Below are positions 12,893 to 49,216 of a stretch of DNA of 64,000 nucleotides, in pieces (within the stretch, counting starts at the first letter, position 1; each line of letters opens with the position of its first letter). Origin of the DNA: Dictyostelium discoideum (taxonomy: Eukaryota). Location: positions 4,832,001 through 4,896,000 of the forward strand of contig CM000150.2 of the NCBI GenBank assembly GCA_000004695.1. The letters run 5' to 3'. Under the pieces are notes generated by a model. The model did not search any database. It had not been told where the DNA came from and saw only the letters and a list, made by a program, of their open reading frames with translations. The position numbers and the translations under genes were made by a program.

Positions 12893-13007
12893 ATAATAAT
12901 TGGTAAAAAAATAAAAAAAAAAAAGTAGGATAAAATGTTTGTGGTGTTTAATAACACTTTTTTTTTTTTTTTTTATTTTACACTCAATTTTTTTAAAAAT
13001 TAAAATT

Positions 13008-13418
13008 TTAAGCACGTTCACCTCTGATACGTCTTGCTAATTGAATATCTTTAACCATGATAGTAACACGTTTGGCATGAATTGCACATAAATTAGTATC
13101 TTCAAATAGACCGACCAAGTATGCTTCAGTTGCTTCTTGGAGAGCTTCAATTGCAGCAGCTTGGAAACGAAGATCAGTTTTAAATTCTTGTGCTATTTCT
13201 CTTACTAAACGTTGAAATGGTAACTTTTTAATTAAAAGATCAGATGATTTTTGATATCTACGGATTTCTCTAAGTGCAACAGTACCTGGTCTGAAACGAT
13301 GGGTCTTCTTTAAAACTTCATTAACAGGTTTACTTGGAAATGATGATTTTGAACTTAAATGTTTTCTTGGAACTTTAGCACCTGTTGATTTTCTAGCTGT
13401 TTGTTTTGTACGGGCCAC
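13008..13418 (-). CDS. Histone H3 variant (136 aa), intronless
   Basis: [58 protein letters not shown]...ERA shows the H3 fold and signature motifs. The N-tail carries a lineage-specific insertion between the K27 and K36 equivalents. This is one of the Dictyostelium H3a/H3b-type variants. Confidence 0.95.
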
Positions 13419-14005
13419 TGTAAATTAAATAAAAATAATAAATTAGTAATCTTTTTTAAAATAATTTCTTTTTTTTTTTTTTTTTTTTTGATTTTACTTT
13501 TTAAAACTTAAAGATGGAAATTTAAATCAAATAATTTGAATGAGTGTAGGATTGGTGTGTGTGGATAATTAAAAAAAAAAATATTATTATTTATATTGAA
13601 TATGGGTGTTAGATTTTATTATTAAAAATTTGGAAATTAAAAAAATAGGGAAAAAAAATAGTTTTTTAAATATTTCCTTTTTTATTAATTCAAGATTGTT
13701 TTGAAAAAAAAAAATAATATATAAAATTATAATAATTAAAAATAAAATAAACATTACTATTTTGAAATTGAAAAATAAAATCTATAAAAATAACTTTAGA
13801 GAATTTAATTATTATTAATATTTTTGATTTTAAAAATAAAAATATAATTAAAGAAATCAAATAGAAATGAAATTAAACAAAAAAATAAAAAGAGATAGAT
13901 ATCCAATCAAAAGTTTTTGAAAAGAAATTGGTTTTTTGTGTGGTGTTAAAAAACACCTTTGGAGTGGTTACACTCTATTTGGTTCAATTGAAATTTGTAA
14001 TAATT

Positions 14006-14416
14006 TTAAGCACGTTCACCTCTGATACGTCTGGCTAATTGAATATCCTTAACCATGATAGTGACACGTTTAGCGTGGATGGCACATAAATTGGTATCTT
14101 CAAAGAGACCAACCAAGTAAGCTTCTGAGGCTTCTTGAAGAGCTTGGATGGCAGCAGCTTGGAAACGAAGATCGGTTTTGAATTCTTGTGCGATTTCTCT
14201 AACTAAACGTTGGAATGGTAACTTCTTGATTAAGAGTTCAGATGACTTTTGGTATCTACGGATTTCTCTAAGTGCGACAGTACCTGGTCTGAAACGATGG
14301 GTCTTCTTTAAACCTTGGGTTGATGGAAAAGATTTTTGAGAAGATTTGTTACCCAAATGTTTTCTTGGTACTTTAGCACCAGTTGATTTTCTAGCGGTTT
14401 GTTTTGTACGGGCCAC
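14006..14416 (-). CDS. Histone H3 variant (136 aa), a tandem paralog of 13008..13418
   Basis: [62 protein letters not shown]...ERA. It has the same orientation as the first copy and lies 1 kb upstream. It differs in the tail insert and at many synonymous sites. Confidence 0.95.
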
Positions 14417-15142
14417 TATAAATATTTTAAAATTTTTTAATATTAGTATACATATTTTATTTTATAACACTCATTTGTTTTTTTTTTTATTATTATTGAA
14501 TTATTGATTATTTAATTTTATTTTATTATTGTTTTTTATTGTTTTTTTTTTTTTTAATTCTTACTCTTAAATTAAAATTGAGAATGTGAAATATATAATA
14601 TAAAGGAAATAATTATTTTCAATCGAGTGTAGTGTAAGTTTTTTTGTTATGAATGATAAAAATTTCAAATTTTTTTTTTATATGGCGTGGAGCCGTTGAA
14701 TTTCATAGGTGATGTTAATTTTTTTGCATATAAAAATTTTTTTTTTTTTGATTTTTACCTTTCAAACTGTTTTCAAATTTTTAAAAAAATAAAAAAAAAA
14801 AATTTGGCGCCCTGATATTTTAAACACAATTTGAAAATGTGAAAGTAACTGTTTAAATTTTTTTTTTTTTAAAAAAAAATCCTTAAATGGTTATTTTGAA
14901 TATATTTTTAATTTTCATTCATTTTCTTTGAAAAAAATAAATAAAACCAAAAATAAATAAAAGAAATGAAATGAAATTTTATTTATTGTTTTTTCCAAAC
15001 TCAATAATTATTTCTTAAAAAGTTAATTGTTATTCAATAATTTAAATTTAAAGTTAAAATAATCTTTTATTTTTATTTTTATTTTTTTTTATTTTTTTTT
15101 ATTTTTTGTTGTTTAGATAAAGAGTAGTTTTGATTTCCTAAA

Positions 15143-41136: not shown

Positions 41137-42835
41137 TTAATTTAGAGATAAGAATTTGACTCGGATAAATTGATTTCCTTGAATTTTTTGTCCATCAAGA
41201 TTTTGTTGAGCTAAAATTGCATTTTCTGCATTATTAAAAGATATGAAACATTTTGTTTTGTTACTATTTGGATTTATATTTATCTATTTTATAAAATGAT
41301 AATAATTAGTAACCAATTTGAAAGAAAAAAAAAAAAAAAAAAAAAAAAGGTAAATTCCAAATAAAACACTTACATTTATACTTTTTAAATCTCCATATTT
41401 TGAAAAAATCTGGATTAAATTTGAATATTCTAAACTTCCTTTAAATGTGCAAACCAAAATTGAAACTGAATTATTATTTATAGTTTTAGTATATTTTGGT
41501 GAGGATGGTGGTGATTGTTGTTGCGGTTGTTGTGGTTGTTGAGGTTGGTATTGTTGTGCGTATACAATTGGTTGTTGTGGTTGTGGAATATGATGATGAT
41601 GATGATAATAATATGATGTTGCTGTTGGATATACGTAATAATTTTGATCAGTTGGTTGCCATGAATAACTTTGTTGTGGGGAAGTGGAATGTAATTCCCC
41701 ATTTGTTGAGTAAACACCATTTGAATAATGATCATAATAATTATTTGAGTATGAATTTGAATTATATTCCTAATTTTAAAAAAAAAAAAAAAAAAAAAAA
41801 TTAATATTAAAATTAAAATTAATAGATAATCTATTTAAACTAAGAGAATATATTAAATATTTACTTGTGATGCATAATAACCTTGATATGGCTCACCTTG
41901 ATAAACATATGAATATTGTGGTGGTGGAGGAATTGATGGTAATGGTGGTTGTGGAATTGATTGTGGTGGTTGTGGAATTGATATTGGTTGTATTGATTGT
42001 TGCTGCTGTTGTTGTAGTTGTTGAGATGATTGATTATTATTATATTTTTGTGGTTGTGGAGATGATGGACGTTGAGGTTGATTTGGAGAAGATGAACGAT
42101 TTGGAATATTTGTTAAAGAAGAAATTGAGTTAGTTGTGGGACTTGGTGTTAAAGAAGATGTTGATGATATAGATGAATTTGATAATGATAAATAAGGAAT
42201 TTGAATTGATTGTTTTTTACCATTAGGTGCATACTTAACTATTTTTTTTTAAAGAAAATATATACATATATACGTACATATTAATATTTGTTTTTTTTTT
42301 TAAGGAATATAAAATAAAATAATATCTTACCAACTAAAGGAGTTTCACCTAAAATTAAAGAACCAGACATTGATTGTAAAGCATTTGTTGAATAATGAAT
42401 ATTTGAGAATTTAATAACGCCGGCTCTCTTACTTTTTCCACTACTGGCATCAATTAAAACTTGAGCCTCAATAACTTCACCAAATTGAGAGAATGTTGAG
42501 TTTAAAATTGCATCAGTAATTGTTGGTGATAATACTCTAACATAAAGAGTATTTGATGGATCTCTTTGTTGTTCAGTTTGGGATGGTGAAGTAGTTGCAC
42601 CACCATTTGAATCTGGTACACAACAACTAATACCACCATTTCCATTGTTACCTACAAATGGAGACACTGGTGGTGAATTTGATGGTTTCGATAATTTACA
42701 TAAAAGTGTCTTATATCCAACTTGATATCTATTCATATTTTTAATTGCTTCACAAGCATTTTCTGGATTTAAAAATCTTACAAATCTATTTAAAATATAT
42801 TATAATTAATATTTTGGATTTTTTTTTTTTTTTTT

Positions 42836-42878
<43 letters not shown>

Positions 42879-43021
42879 TCATACCCATATCCTAAGCTAT
42901 TTCCAGTTTTAATATTAACCATAACTTTTGTATTTACAATTTCTCCAAATTGTTCAAATAGATCATATAATTCTATATTTTTTTATTTATTTAATTATTT
43001 ATTTTTTGGTGATTAAATAAT

Positions 43022-43067
<46 letters not shown>

Positions 43068-43220
43068 ATTAATAAATGAAAAATATTATTTTATTTAAAA
43101 TTCAAGAGTATTACCTTTTTCTGAAAAATTACATGGTAAATATTTTACAAAAACATTACAAATATCAACTTCGGAATCTAATTCAAATTCTTGACTTATT
43201 GGTTCAACTTCCATTTTCAT
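41137..43220 (-). CDS. ELAV/CELF-like RNA-binding protein with three RRMs, 521 aa. Exons are join(43115..43220, 42885..42972, 42331..42785, 41865..42238, 41374..41769, 41137..41283).
   Basis: RRM1 carries RNP2 NVFVKYLP and RNP1 LGYGFVRF. RRM2 carries LYVRVL and RAGVIKF and ends ...LGETPLVVKYA, the ELAV/CELF-type linker. A P/Q-rich spacer follows. RRM3 is SILVCTF...KCFISFNNAENAILAQQNLDGQKIQGNQFIRVKF. All six exons and their phases were checked by coordinate arithmetic (1566 nt). Confidence 0.85.
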
Positions 43221-43338
43221 TTTTTTTTTTTTTTTATTTTAAAATTTTATTTTAGGTTTCGGATTGAGGGTGTGAACTTTAATATTTTTTTATTTTAATA
43301 TTTTTTTTTTTTTTTCTTTAAATGAAAAGTTAATAATA

Positions 43339-43377
<39 letters not shown>

Positions 43378-44291
43378 CTTATAAAAAAAAATAAAATTAA
43401 TTATAATAATACAAAATGGTTTTTTTATTTTTGTTTTGGTGATGTGTTGTGAAAATGAAAGTGAAAATAATTTTTTTTTTTTTGTTTTTCAAAAAAGAAA
43501 AATAAAGTAAATGTGATTATAATCACAAAAAAAAAAAAAATAAAAATAAAAAAAAAAATAAAAAAAAAAAATTAAAATAATAATAGTTTGATTGGCGAAT
43601 GAAAAATATTTTAAAAAATCTAAAATTCTGTGCAAAGTGTATTTTTATTATTTTGATTATTTTGAAATGATTGAAAATTTTTAATTGGTTTTATTTATTC
43701 GATTGGCAAAAAAAAAAAATAAAAAAAAAAATATAAAAAAAAATAAAAAAATAAAAAATAAAAAAAATAGAAAAAAATAATGGTTATTGGTTTGGATATG
43801 GACTTATATGAATTAAAAATCTGACAGACGATCACCCTTTTTTTTCCAACCAATCAAATGACCAATTAACCATAATCAAAAGAAAAATATCTTAAAACCG
43901 ACAAAGACATTCGACAAAAAAAAAAATATGAAAAATAAAAAATAAAAAAAATAAAGTAAAAAAAAAAAAAAACTGCAAAAAATCCAAAAAAACGATACTT
44001 GCAAAACAAAAAAAAAAAAAATAAAATAAAATGTAATGACCGTTATGGGAGAGAAAAGGTATTTTTTTTATGGTGCACAGAAATATTATTGTTCGTTTCT
44101 AAACAGATTTAAAAAAAACCAAAATTTACCCTAACACTTAATTAATTAATTAATTAATTAATTAAATTATTTTATAGATTTCTGATATATTTGGAATATG
44201 GTTTTGAAATGATTATTATAATTGATTTAATAAAAAATGTAAATGGTTTTTTCTAAACAATTTTTTACTTTTTTTATTTTTTTTTCAATTT

Positions 44292-44349
<58 letters not shown>

Positions 44350-45040
44350 TTATTTGATTATGGTGAATGTTGTTTAATTATTTTTTATTTTTTTTTAAAA
44401 TAGGTTTTTTTTTTTTATAGTTTTTTTTTTTTTTATTTTTTTTTTAAAAAAAAAAAAATAATAACAAAAAATTAAATAAAATAAATTGTTTGAATTGGAA
44501 AGGGTTTTAAATATTTTTTAATATTTTTTTAATAATTTTTTTTTTTTTTAAAAAAAATGATTGCCACAGGAATCGAATAACCATATTTACTAAATTGTCA
44601 ATTCGATCGGTTATAATTTTTGTGAAAAAAATGAAAAAAAAAAAATATATACATGCAATCTATGTTTCGAATCAAGATTCCAAAAAAAAAAAAAAAAAAA
44701 AAAAATATGAAAATAAATATCCGAGGTTTTTTTAACGAAACACAAATAACATGAAAACAAATCTAAGAATTAAAACCTCCAAAAACCCTTTTACGTATTG
44801 GTATCTCTACTTTTTGTGATAAATAAGTTGATCGCATATATTTTTAATTAAAAAAAAAAAAAAATTTTAAAAAAAAATAATACATATGACTTTTACTTTT
44901 TTGGATTTACTATGCACAAAGTTATTGATTAACTTTAAAATGGTTGGTTATTTTAATTATGTGATAGTTTTGTTATTGAATTTTATTTTGTTTTTATTTT
45001 TATTTTAGTTATTTTCTTTCTTTTTTTTATTTTATTTTAT

Positions 45041-45071
<31 letters not shown>

Positions 45072-45793
45072 TTCTATCCTTATAAATTTTGTTTTTTTTT
45101 TTTTTTTTTTTTTTTAATTATTTATTTGAAATTATTTTTTATTTTATTTAAATGATTGTTTTAAAATGAAATGAAATAATTTTATTTTCCTTATGTCAAA
45201 AAAAATTTTTTTTTTTTAAAATTAAAAAAAAAAAAATAAAACCCACGAAAATGTATTTTGATTGTTTTGGGGCATTTATTTTAAGATACATGACCTATTT
45301 TTGGCACCAAATTTTTTTTTTTACAAAAATAGTTTTTTTTCAAAAAAAAAAGACGAAAATTTTAAAATTGGGTTAATGCCCGCATGAATATTTAAAAACA
45401 AAAAATTGCGCCAATTCGATTAACAAGATAATAGGCCCGCCAACTATGTGAATGATATCTCACACCACGAGATTAATAAAAATTTGTGTGAATTTTAGAT
45501 TTATTAAAAAAACCAAAAATAAAAAAATCAAAAAAACGAAAGTGCTAATAATATGAACCAATCAAATTTGGTCTTATTTTATATATCTAAATTTTTATTA
45601 TAAATATTTACTTTTATGATGTTTTTTGGATATTGATCACGGTATAATGGTGAATTAATTATCTATAATTGTAATACGAAGGGTTTGATGTAATTATTAT
45701 TTGTGGTGATGATTTAAGCTAATTATAGTTTTTTTTTTTTTTTTTTTTATAATTATAATAATTATTATTATTATTTTTTTTTGAAAATTAAAT

Positions 45794-45827
<34 letters not shown>

Positions 45828-45854
45828 ATTTATAAAAAAAAAAGTGAAGATAAG

Positions 45855-45903
<49 letters not shown>

Positions 45904-46600
45904 AAAAAAACTTACCCAAACATTACATTACGAATAATAAATTTTCTATTATTGATTTTAAAATCATTTAATACTATTTGAACCTTAACGAGAGAGAGGG
46001 GGTGCATTCTTAATTAATTCAATCCTTTTTTTTAACTTGCACTGACGTTCTGGGATGTTAATAATAGAGTGCAGAATTAATTTAATTTTATTTTATTTTT
46101 TTTTTAATTTTTTTTTTTTTTTGTGAAATTTTTTATTTTAATCATTTCGTGATGGGTAAAAAAAAAAAAAACCACCATCAAAACGACTGTATAACAACAC
46201 AATGAGATAGATTTAATTAAACAAAAAAGCCAAAATTAAACAACGGTTTTTTCCTGGGGAATCTTTCAAAGGGTAAATCTATTAATATGTTTTTTTTTTT
46301 TTCAAACTTTTTTTTTAAATTTATTCCAGAAGATCTACATATTTGCCTTTATTAAGAATAAGAATCAAAAGAAGAGTTTTTTTTATTTTATTAATAAAAA
46401 TAATTTCGGTGGGTGTGGGTTGATATAAAAAAAAAATTAAATATTAAAATTTAAAACTGAACCACATTTTTTATTTGAAAAAAAAAAATATCTTGTGGGT
46501 AATACGATTTTGGATATCATGGTGTTATTACTTTGATTATTAAAGATAAGATTTTAATCTCGTCTAAAAATTTTTTTTTTTTGTTTTTTTTATCTGTTTC

Positions 46601-46888
46601 TTATAATAAAATTGGAAATAAAAAAGATATATTTTTTTTTTAAAAAAAATAAAAAAAACACAAAAAACAAAATAAAAAAAAAAACATATTGCAATATTAA
46701 AATCTTAATCTTTCACTGGTTGAATTTTTACTTTTTTTTTTTACTTTTAAAAATTCAACCAGTGAAAGACACGCTCACTTTAAAAATAATTATATAACAA
46801 CAAGATAAATGGTGAGTTTAATTAAAGATTTTATTTTTTTTTTTGGTTTTTTTTTTTTTTTTTTTATAATAAAATTGGAAATAAAAAG
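46601..46888. repeat. Pair of 25-bp direct repeats TTATAATAAAATTGGAAATAAAAAG (46601..46625 and 46864..46888) flanking the hairpin; each is preceded by a poly-T tract
   Basis: Exact 25/25 match 263 bp apart, seen directly. Confidence 0.8.
46710..46768. repeat. Perfect 21-bp inverted repeat (ctttcactggttgaattttta / taaaaattcaaccagtgaaag) with a 17-nt T-rich loop: a stable hairpin in an otherwise gene-free interval
   Basis: The reverse complement of 46710..46730 equals 46748..46768 exactly. G/C-containing perfect palindromes of this length are rare in this AT-rich background. Confidence 0.85.
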
Positions 46889-46999
46889 AAGTATTTTTTA
46901 AAATTAAGGTGATATTAAAAATAAACAAAGATATTAAATTGTTTATTGTTTTTTTTTATTAGTTTGTTAATTTATAGATTTATCTATAGTTAAATTATA

Positions 47000-48597
47000 T
47001 TAAACATCAATTGGTTCTTGAATTTCATCAGTTTGAATTGGTTCTTCTTTTGGTGGAGTTGATGGTAAAGTTGATGACAAATGATCAGTATTCATATCAC
47101 TTTTATCAATTTCTCTTTGTTCAGTATGATTGAATTTACATTTTGGATTTGTACACTCTTTACCAAACTATACATAAAAAAAATAAAAAAAAGGAAAAAT
47201 AAAAAGTTTAAAAATTAGTACCCTTTTGATTGGTTGATTGGTTGATTGGTTGATTGGTTGATTGATTGATTGATTTTTTAATAAAAGATACTTACTTTAC
47301 AATCAGGTATTGGTTGTTCAACAGAATGATGAGCAAAAGTACAATTTGGAGTAACGCAATTTAAACCATAGAGACAAGGTTTACCATGACCGAATGGGCA
47401 AGCTTTACCCATATTACAACTTGTACCGAATTTACAAGCTGGTGGTGGGTGATAAAATCCACAACCAGTCTTTTTATTTGGACAAGCAAAACCATTTCTG
47501 CATGGAATTTCGTTCATTGCTGGTGGTGTAGCAACTGGTGCAGTGGGTCTTTGTGGATGATTATAAACACAATCTACATTTGTACAATTAATTCCAAATT
47601 TACATGGAATTGATGGATGAATATATAAACATTTATCGCCATATGTGCAATTTGGGAATAACCTATACATATTGTTTTTCATTTTTTTAAAAAACATATT
47701 AATAAATTAATTTCAATTTTCTTTTTTTAATTTCTAAAAAATATTATTATGTTTCCATATGAAAAGATTGAAATATAAAATTAATACTTACAAACATTGA
47801 GTTGTTGGATGGTGATATATACAAGCTTCAGCATTTCTACATAATGGCCAATATGAACATCTTTCTTTTTTTGATTTTTTCGGTGAAACTAAATCCAAGG
47901 GTATATTAACTGGATCATCAGTTGTATCATTGATTGTATTACTTTTATCGATTTCATCATCATCATCTCTATTTATATTTTTTCTTTTCTTTGATCCTGT
48001 ATTTATATCATTCATTGTAATTGTAAAATTTGGTTGTTGTTTATTATTACTATTATTACCATTCTTTCTATTACTATTATTATTATTATTATTATTATTA
48101 TTATGTTTATCTTTTTTTATAAAATCTTTTTTACCATTACTATAGGTATTATTGCTACTATTGTTACTATTATTATTATTGTTATCAATATCATAATGAG
48201 AATCATTTAAAGATTCTTCAGTCATTGGCACTCTAACATTTTTTGTATCTTCAGCAGCTTGTTTTACTGCATTTAAAATTAATCTTTGGGTTGGTGGTTT
48301 CTTTGCGGTTTGTTGTTGTTGTTGTTGCATAGTGGTATCGTTGATTTGTTTTTGTTTGTTAATGGATTCAAAATATGATGGTATATAATTCCAAAGCCAT
48401 CCGGCAAATTCACCTGCTTTATCAATACCAATGAAATCTGATAAATCATTTGCCATCTCTTCTTTGGTTTTATTATTTCTTACCATAACTGATATATACT
48501 CTGTTAAAATATTATCACACTCTAAATAATTCTTTACTTCATTTTGAATTGTATCCACGATCTCTGGTGTATAATTATATCCACCTAATGTTGTCAT
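47000..48597 (-). CDS. ZC3H14/Nab2-like nuclear poly(A)-binding CCCH zinc-finger protein, 446 aa. Exons are join(47792..48597, 47296..47662, 47000..47167).
   Basis: The N-terminal PWI-like domain (MTTLGGYNYTPEIVDTIQNEVKNYLECDNILTEYISVMVRNNKTKEEMANDLSDFIG..AGWLWN) parallels ZC3H14/Nab2. There is then a Q/N-rich low-complexity middle. Tandem CX5CX4-5CX3H fingers follow (CSYWPLCRNAEACIYHH; CTYGDKCLYIH; CKFGINCTNVDCVYNH; ...; CKFGKECTNPKCKFNH, which spans the last intron). Confidence 0.8.
47221..47275. repeat. (TTGATTGG)5(TTGA)4 compound microsatellite inside intron 2 of the ZC3H14-like gene
   Basis: ttgattggttgattggttgattggttgattggttgattgattgattgatt seen directly. A G/C-containing octamer repeat is unusual in these introns. 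Confidence 0.9.
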
Positions 48598-48914
48598 TTC
48601 TTTTTCTTTTTTTTTTTTTTTTTTTTTTGCTACTAAATGTTTTTTATTTTTCTTTTTTTTCTATTATAAAAAAATAAAAATAAAATAAAAACGTTTTTTA
48701 ATTAAATAATAATATAACGAATGATTTATATTTAAAATAAACTAATCTGAATTGTTGAAAAAAAAAAAAAAAAAGTGTTTGTGTGTGGGATATTGTGGAA
48801 ATACAAAAAATAAAAAAAAATATAAAAAAAAATATAAAAAAAAAAAAATAAAAATAAAAATTTAAAAAAAGAGAAAATTCAAAAAAAAAAAAAAAAAAAA
48901 AAAAAAAAACAAAA

Positions 48915-48965
<51 letters not shown>

Positions 48966-49216
48966 AATAAATTAATAAATAAATAACGAACGATTATTTT
49001 GACCATCTTTTTTTTTTTACTCTTTTTTTACTTAACATTTATTTTTTTTTGTTTATTATTTTATTTTTTATTTTTTTTTTTTTATTTTTTTTTGGATTAA
49101 AATTTTTAATTTTTTTTTTTTTTTTAATTTTTTTTTTTTTTGAATTTTTTAAATTTTTCATTTTTTGTTCAAATATCACACTCACAGTAATCACCCACAT
49201 ACATATATATAAAATC

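Follow-up and report, generated by a model that had tools for sequence, protein, structure and literature searches.

A perfect 22-bp hairpin in a repeat-bounded block downstream of the ZC3H14/Nab2-like gene of Dictyostelium discoideum

The 64-kb stretch of Dictyostelium discoideum DNA analysed here (contig CM000150.2, positions 4,832,001 to 4,896,000; hereafter the window) is of the AX4 type, has a G+C content of about 22%, and contains the locus, probably on chromosome 1, of DDB_G0270816, a minus-strand gene for a protein with tandem CCCH zinc fingers. Downstream of this gene lies a perfect hairpin with G/C-containing arms, set between two copies of a direct repeat, and this arrangement is the subject of the present study. 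The gene has three exons (48597-47792, 47662-47296, and 47167-47000), and its 446-aa product is ZC3H14/Nab2-like; the AX4 annotation names it "Zinc finger CCCH domain-containing protein 14". Among the relatives of the protein encoded in the window, the four D. discoideum entries are closest, with AX4 and strain ACTFIT matching equally well; next come those of D. firmibasis (87%), D. citrinum (83%), and D. purpureum (60%). Between DDB_G0270816 and the next gene, which encodes an RRM protein on the same (minus) strand, is a gap of about 3.9 kb that contains no gene, and the hairpin and its repeats lie at its DDB_G0270816 end. The hairpin itself is located 231-291 nt downstream of the DDB_G0270816 stop codon and is spanned by an open reading frame of 61 aa. 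The coordinates of all features are collected in Table 1.

Table 1. Features at and around the hairpin, in coordinates of the window
Feature	Position	Strand	Basis or remark
Extended imperfect repeat unit, distal (T-run + TATAATAAAA... + T-run)	46570..46637	+	alignment score 94, shuffle maximum 50
Direct-repeat core, distal copy (24 nt, same as 46864-46887, then one extra A)	46601..46624	+	sequence identity
Repeat-bounded block, 263 bp (one repeat copy plus intervening hairpin-bearing sequence)	46625..46887		no D. firmibasis counterpart; exact boundaries within the repeat arbitrary
Outer A/T-rich 9-bp stem (46698-46706 / 46825-46833), enclosing both inner stems	46698..46833	+	predicted plus-strand fold
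Break in the otherwise continuous BLAST chain to D. citrinum; least conserved segment of the 3.9-kb gap	46704..46867		alignment
Hairpin arm 1, TCTTTCACTGGTTGAATTTTTA (22 nt, 6 G/C)	46709..46730		perfect complement of 46748-46769
Hairpin loop, 17 nt, CTTTTTTTTTTTACTTT on the plus strand (T-rich); A-rich on the gene-sense minus strand	46731..46747		sequence
Hairpin arm 2, TAAAAATTCAACCAGTGAAAGA	46748..46769		perfect complement of arm 1
Side stem, 7 bp, GCTCACT/GGTGAGT, beside the hairpin	46773..46817	+	one double change (C-G to T-A) in haplotype B; not above shuffles
Extended imperfect repeat unit, proximal	46833..46899	+	alignment score 94, shuffle maximum 50
Direct-repeat core, gene-proximal copy	46864..46887	+	sequence identity
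Perfect 9-bp palindrome AATAAACAA/TTGTTTATT, 10-nt loop, containing a poly(A) signal	46920..46947	-	53-80 nt after the DDB_G0270816 stop
Last exon of DDB_G0270816	47000..47167	-	stop codon TAA at 47002-47000

At up to three mismatches, the window contains no copy of CTTTCACTGGTTGAATTTTTA other than that at 46710-46730 and its reverse complement at 46748-46768, and none is expected in shuffled sequence. The initial annotation of this DNA had described these two segments as exact reverse complements around a 17-nt T-rich loop. That description is correct, and the stem is even one pair longer: it gains a T-A pair (46709/46769), giving 22 bp, or 23 pairs when a G.U pair on the minus strand is counted. 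In a scan with loops of 3-60 nt, the hairpin is the longest perfect inverted repeat of the 64 kb, and among inverted repeats with arms of at least 12 bp it is the only one with at least four G/C per arm, the others shown being purely A/T or having a single G/C. Folding of the RNA, also suggested by that annotation, gives a stable structure of -28.2 kcal/mol on the plus strand and -29.6 to -32.4 kcal/mol on the minus strand (z-scores of -8 to -11), and the DNA fold reaches -20.8 kcal/mol (z-score -10). Of the two further stems in the predicted plus-strand fold, the outer one is uninformative because it is invariant. Scans for the arms in metagenome and in bacterial and archaeal genome collections returned 15 and 16 single-arm matches, all on unrelated contigs; as no contig carries both arms, these matches are due to chance. 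Arm 15-mers, DDB_G0270816, and its neighbours returned nothing from the full texts of PubMed Central (PMC) and bioRxiv.

The direct repeat is not a product of chance, because none of 100 block-shuffled windows holds a comparable local 20-mer repeat. An identical 25-mer on both sides of the hairpin had been reported earlier; the pair is real, with starts 263 nt apart, but the identity covers 24 nt, and base 25 differs (A versus G) because six A residues precede the G in the first copy and five in the second. When a 1-nt gap is allowed, the similarity runs on to an imperfect unit of about 68 nt, of which the 24 nt are the core (score 94 against a shuffle mean of 30 and a maximum of 50). Each unit is laid out as a T-run, TATAATAAAATTGGAAAT, an A-run, GA(A)GTAT, and another T-run, and the long T-run before each copy had indeed been recognized from the outset. 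The 24-mer has no further copy in the window at up to three mismatches. The hairpin arms sit 84 nt and 94 nt inside the direct repeats, and a search for a donor of the block's complex sequence, in the 64-kb window and in six related loci that total about 100 kb, found matches to T-runs only.

The orthologous locus was compared in three further assemblies labelled as D. discoideum (L001, L004, and L005, from GCA_054859355.1, GCA_054883475.1, and GCA_054859385.1), in D. citrinum (L003), in D. firmibasis (L002), and in D. purpureum (L006). Gene order and gap length are conserved at all of these loci except that of D. purpureum, and the gap can be aligned over its full length, the identities being 75.5% for D. 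citrinum and 70.7% for D. firmibasis. The hairpin is confined to the four D. discoideum-type sequences (the window, L004, L001, and L005); the syntenic site of D. citrinum and D. firmibasis contains no complex inverted repeat, and nothing resembling an arm was found in these species even when four errors were allowed. Nowhere in the gap is conservation lower than in the hairpin segment: identity to D. citrinum is 0.37-0.42 over 46866-46705, compared with 0.7-1.0 over most of 45750-43130. Within the arms, 24 of 41 positions differ from D. citrinum, against 18% across the gap.

The two sister species are not alike in what they carry in place of the block. D. citrinum has both repeat units, in degenerate form, and between them a block of the same length with largely different sequence and no hairpin; it aligns far better to the intact D. 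discoideum sequence than to one from which the block has been removed (alignment scores of 411.5 and 220.5). For D. firmibasis the score is 218.5 with the 263 bp removed and 197.5 with them intact, and the flanks are collinear: the stop codon is followed by the conserved AATAAACAA..TTGTTTATT, a single repeat unit, and the conserved block CGAGATTAAAATCTTATCTTTAATAATCAAAG... Because D. firmibasis lacks the block and D. citrinum has one, the block behaves as one piece that species have gained or lost. A presence/absence polymorphism had been envisaged between strains; the absence of the block and the single repeat in D. firmibasis bear out this idea in part, although the difference is one between species.

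Within D. discoideum, two haplotypes were found at the locus. Haplotype A comprises the window and L004, which are near-identical and have the perfect hairpin, and haplotype B comprises L001 and L005. Since the hairpin is seen in independent assemblies, it is no assembly artefact. Over 42007-49000, the assemblies labelled as D. discoideum form two deeply diverged groups that are 91.6% identical when gaps are counted; substitutions amount to about 4% of the non-coding DNA, and the proteins are 97% identical. The arms of haplotype B have two changes, neither of which is matched by a change of the partner base. One lies in the middle of an arm and is G to A on the gene-sense strand, that is, C to U opposite G on the plus strand, so that it leaves a G.U pair on the plus strand only and an A.C on the other; the second unpairs an outer C-G. 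In L005, one arm has also lost 2 nt at its apical end. The predicted stabilities (minus/plus strand) fall accordingly from -29.6/-28.2 to -17.8/-21.9 kcal/mol in L001 and -16.4/-19.8 kcal/mol in L005. Between the two haplotypes, substitutions amount to 4.1% in the gap, 8.2% in 46570-46900, and 2 of 44 positions (4.5%) in the arms; therefore the arms change at about the neutral local rate. The same is true of the repeat cores, which are identical in AX4 and have about 8% changes in haplotype B. When base pairs are counted over the outer, 22-bp, and 7-bp stems of the plus-strand fold, one pair, which belongs to the side stem, is changed on both sides, two pairs are changed on one side, and one is broken; this covariation is not significant, as 159 of 500 shuffles reach the observed counts. 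We also observed a cluster of substitutions at the base of the hairpin (46770-46780), where GAGCGTG in haplotype A corresponds to GAATATA in haplotype B, with four changes in six bases. A matching change on the opposite side of the 7-bp side stem (C-G to T-A) accompanies this GCGTG/ATATA cluster, which looks like a multi-nucleotide or template-switch event.

The identity of the repeat cores would date from after the split from D. citrinum and would have been produced within the D. discoideum lineage by a recent event, whether duplication, conversion, or templated insertion. We infer this because the cores are identical in AX4, the block is about 42% diverged from that of D. citrinum, and the cores of haplotype B have about 8% changes. 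As to the block as a whole, it is possible, with marginal statistical support, that it goes back to a tandem duplication with a period of 263 bp, one copy of which has since decayed. A duplication of the full period gives a global z-score of 7.3, which is driven by the repeat unit, and z-scores of 3.0-3.7 outside it. In haplotype B, ATCTTTAATAATTAAATT..CACCAT, which follows the proximal repeat, matches ATCTTTAATAATCAAAGTAATAACACCAT, which follows the distal one, in collinear order, and both share ATTTTAATATT and a T-run.

On balance, we consider the hairpin to be probably a young, D. discoideum-specific palindrome that is under no constraint and resides in a repeat-bounded block of about 240-263 bp, born of local duplication or template switching. 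We also infer that it has no selected function at present. It is documented that template switching can homogenize inverted repeats, lengthen them, and generate new hairpins, even miRNA-like ones (microRNA, miRNA; PMC10710096, PMC13100816, PMC7202029). The present locus shares with quasi-palindrome and template-switch mutations an inverted repeat in non-coding DNA whose arms match perfectly across a short spacer and which is specific to the lineage, being absent from the orthologous site of the sister species. It also adjoins a substitution cluster (GCGTG/ATATA) and undergoes ordinary mutational decay in the other haplotype. Unlike such mutations, however, the direct repeat of 24/68 nt demands a second step, which may have been a duplication or a templated insertion. 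In this scenario, the duplication or templated insertion would have produced the direct repeat, and an intrastrand template switch (fold-back copying, or the 'perfecting' of a quasi-palindrome) would then have copied about 22 nt in inverted orientation. Alternatively, a single complex replication-based event may have copied the repeat unit, replaced about 165 nt, and folded back to copy 22 nt inverted; such an event would explain at once the boundaries of the break, the perfect direct repeat, and the perfect inverted repeat. Local tandem duplication with decay offers a second parallel, with its 263-bp period, a unit heading each period, weak collinear matches, a distal copy that is conserved across species, and a proximal copy that evolves fast, but the similarity beyond the repeat unit lies at the edge of what shuffles give and is missed by a profile search. 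If transcribed, the hairpin would yield a duplex of 22-23 bp that Dicer could cut; nothing indicates such processing.

Several observations weigh against the hairpin being a young and unconstrained palindrome. No direct trace of the generating event was found at the locus. The best D. citrinum alignment places CCAGTTGAA...AACCACTG under the two arms, but this alignment, which would show one arm to be ancestral and the other derived, is only weakly significant (z-score about 2.4), too weak for the event to be reconstructed, and the alignment is not clearly improved by deleting the loop and one arm. The indel may be either an insertion or a deletion: synteny is broken in D. purpureum, where another gene lies 277 bp downstream, and a deletion between the repeats would make the single-unit site of D. 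firmibasis look identical to an empty site. As regards duplication, composition-weighted local alignments are mostly non-significant, the best pair being reached by 3 of 300 shuffles, and an nhmmer profile of the conserved copy found nothing above 400 shuffles for a decayed second copy. The one double change in the neighbouring 7-bp stem preserves pairing. Finally, the absence of the hairpin from the sister species is no bar to function, because mir-1177 is the only D. discoideum miRNA conserved in D. firmibasis (PMC11014262).

The last point raises the question of whether the hairpin could be a newborn hairpin-RNA gene, i.e., a proto-miRNA or an endogenous short hairpin RNA that is transcribed, cut by a Dicer-like enzyme to RNAs of about 21 nt, and polymorphic in D. 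discoideum, which we regard as unlikely. The stem has the stability expected of a miRNA hairpin and about the length of a Dicer product, and it resembles the DrnB/RbdB-dependent miRNA precursors of the species (such as ddi-mir-1176, -1177, -1179, and -7097; PMC6161686, PMC11014262), most of which are likewise intergenic, single-copy, and species-specific (PMC11014262). Like them, it is stable and less AT-rich than its flanks, a G/C enrichment reported for amoebozoan miRNAs (PMC11014262). It differs from them in being shorter (61-63 nt, compared with 83-133 nt for the D. discoideum entries seen in a table of PMC11014262) and perfectly paired, with 0 mismatches in the duplex where the criteria of PMC11014262 require at least one. 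It is also outside the published catalogues: none of the 13-mers of the arms is present in the supplements, be it that of PMC6161686 or that of PMC11014262, a negative that is weak for the former, which consists partly of images. A TATATAA on the minus strand lies 25-27 nt upstream of the stem, but a TATA-like motif is found by chance in about 5% of 12-nt slots, and there is no lower stem of note. In the same supplements, no D. discoideum miRNA is placed on NC_007087, which we take to be the RefSeq record of D. discoideum chromosome 1. The likeness to miRNA precursor models in Rfam is weak and generic (mir-4679, E-value 0.004, 29.1 bits), and the window has 0 matches at the gathering thresholds; the permissive matches are to generic miRNA models at about a third of their gathering scores, the best being mir-4679 with 29.1 bits against 88. 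One of the arm substitutions in haplotype B is compatible with G.U pairing on the plus strand, yet the structure is degraded in that haplotype. With no Rfam family, conservation only within D. discoideum, non-significant covariation, and no catalogued miRNA, the structured RNA gene offered as an option by the initial annotation thus finds no support. A fuller version, in which a template switch within a repeat-bounded insertion gave birth to a hairpin-RNA gene that the AX4-type haplotype expresses and dices and other haplotypes are losing, appears quite unlikely; the expression would come from read-through or from the TATA motif of the hairpin itself, and the locus would be a segregating proto-miRNA in a protist. 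Small non-coding RNA genes driven by a DUSE (Class I RNA or small nuclear RNA type) were considered separately and rejected. The DUSE, [AT]CCCA[CT]AA, is situated about 60 nt upstream, and Class I RNAs carry the 11-nt motif CCTTACAGCAA. Both motifs occur at or below chance, and none is placed to drive the hairpin: the window has 10 DUSE matches against 10.1 expected, none of them within 200 nt of the hairpin, and the nearest (46493-46500, minus) points away; the Class I motif is absent from the window at up to one mismatch, and its two-mismatch matches are below chance, with none near the hairpin. The nearest DUSE-like octamer, ACCCACAA, is kept among the D. discoideum haplotypes and not in D. 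citrinum.

A role in cis seems to us improbable, whether as a downstream pausing or termination element, as a stem-loop in the ZC3H14/Nab2-like mRNA whose sense-strand loop shows an A11 tract, or as a duplicated core promoter whose T-run/TATA unit drives plus-strand (antisense) transcription through the hairpin. The hairpin is on the sense strand of a gene for a poly(A)-binding protein, at the distance from its stop codon given above, and yeast NAB2 is autoregulated via an A26 tract in its 3' untranslated region. The AATAAA palindrome at 46920-46947, however, stands on the gene side of the hairpin, about 150-180 nt away, is kept in the D. discoideum haplotypes, D. citrinum, and D. firmibasis, and probably marks the mRNA 3' end, which would place the hairpin and repeat region beyond the transcript. 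Two sister species have the same gene and the same conserved signals without the hairpin. The layout of the repeat unit on the plus strand is that of Dictyostelium core promoters, which consist of a TATA motif and an oligo(dT) run, and the repeat core is identical in AX4 despite the fast divergence of the block between its copies. Yet in a genome whose AT content is given as 78%, A-runs and TATA-like motifs are ubiquitous, TATATAA and the combination of TATA with oligo(dT) are found at the frequency expected from composition, and the repeat units of haplotype B show a neutral rate of change. The bidirectional terminator shared by neighbouring loci that had been suggested does not hold up, since the two neighbouring genes are both on the minus strand and thus form no convergent pair, no U-run abuts the stem, and an AATAAA lies nearer the gene. 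A hairpin terminator as such was rejected as well: the stem has just 6 G-C pairs out of 22 and no adjoining T-run on the plus strand, the minus strand has T4 at +10 and T11 at +22, and the locus is a nuclear eukaryotic one with a conserved AATAAA. Very improbable, in our estimate, is a relic of a non-autonomous mobile element, either a miniature inverted-repeat transposable element (MITE) or a retroposed insert with its target-site duplication, or the scar left by excision. The locus does share with MITEs and other non-autonomous DNA transposons an inverted repeat, flanking direct repeats, and what may be a one-repeat 'empty site' in a relative, D. firmibasis; A/T-runs abut the repeats, and the complex part of the block has no detectable homologue elsewhere in the locus. 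But the inverted repeat is central rather than terminal, only A-run/T-run complementarity abutting the repeats, and the duplication is 24 nt when exact and 68 nt when extended, compared with target-site duplications of 2-10 bp that are typical of DNA transposons and of roughly 12-16 bp for TRE elements. TRE and DGLT elements target tRNA genes, and a scan of the window found no tRNA, so that a tRNA-targeted retrotransposon context was rejected. On neither strand does the A-run lie at the end where a poly(A)-tailed retrocopy would have it. Neither the arms nor the 24-mer have another copy in the 64 kb or in the six related loci, and D. citrinum has largely different sequence of equal length in place of the block. 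The MITE or excision scar first proposed for the locus is therefore not borne out.

Further features of the locus deserve mention in their own right. The small stem-loop at 46920-46947 is conserved, in contrast to the 22-bp hairpin. Between the two AATAAA motifs that follow the stop codon is an A-run of variable length (46946-46954 in the window), with 9 A in the window and L004, 26 A in L001, 21 A in L005, 14+9 A in D. firmibasis, and no run of at least eight in D. citrinum. Just distal to the repeat, the block CGAGATTAAAATCTTATCTTTAATAATCAAAGTAATAACACCATGATATCCAAAATCG (46490-46560, minus) is conserved in all three species and may act as a cis-regulatory DNA element; a conserved secondary structure is lacking, with an RNAalifold energy of -2.3 kcal/mol and no covariation. 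Most of the gap, between 43130 and 45750, is unusually conserved: in windows of 60 columns, identity is 0.7-1.0 for D. citrinum and 0.6-0.9 for D. firmibasis, and there are sharp conserved blocks, e.g., at 45629-45726, 44730-44798, and 44082-44131. No gene is called there in five annotated assemblies and no Rfam family matches, and the blocks are non-coding, because every frame is interrupted by stops in tblastx. A tandem octamer repeat, (TTGATTGG)n, lies in intron 2 of the CCCH gene (47218-47281), with about six copies that decay into (TTGA)n. Elsewhere in the window, at about 13000-14420, several exact matches of 21-36 nt at a constant offset of 998 nt point to a direct duplication of about 1 kb, which is G/C-normal and probably coding.

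As it stands, the locus matters little beyond being one example of how the AT-rich intergenic DNA of Dictyostelium yields perfect palindromes and local duplications. An inverted repeat within direct repeats is insufficient for calling a mobile element. If small RNAs do arise from the hairpin, the locus would become a datable case of the de novo birth of a hairpin by template switching, with a perfect stem in one haplotype, decay in another, and no hairpin in the sister species, in an organism in which nearly all miRNAs are species-specific.

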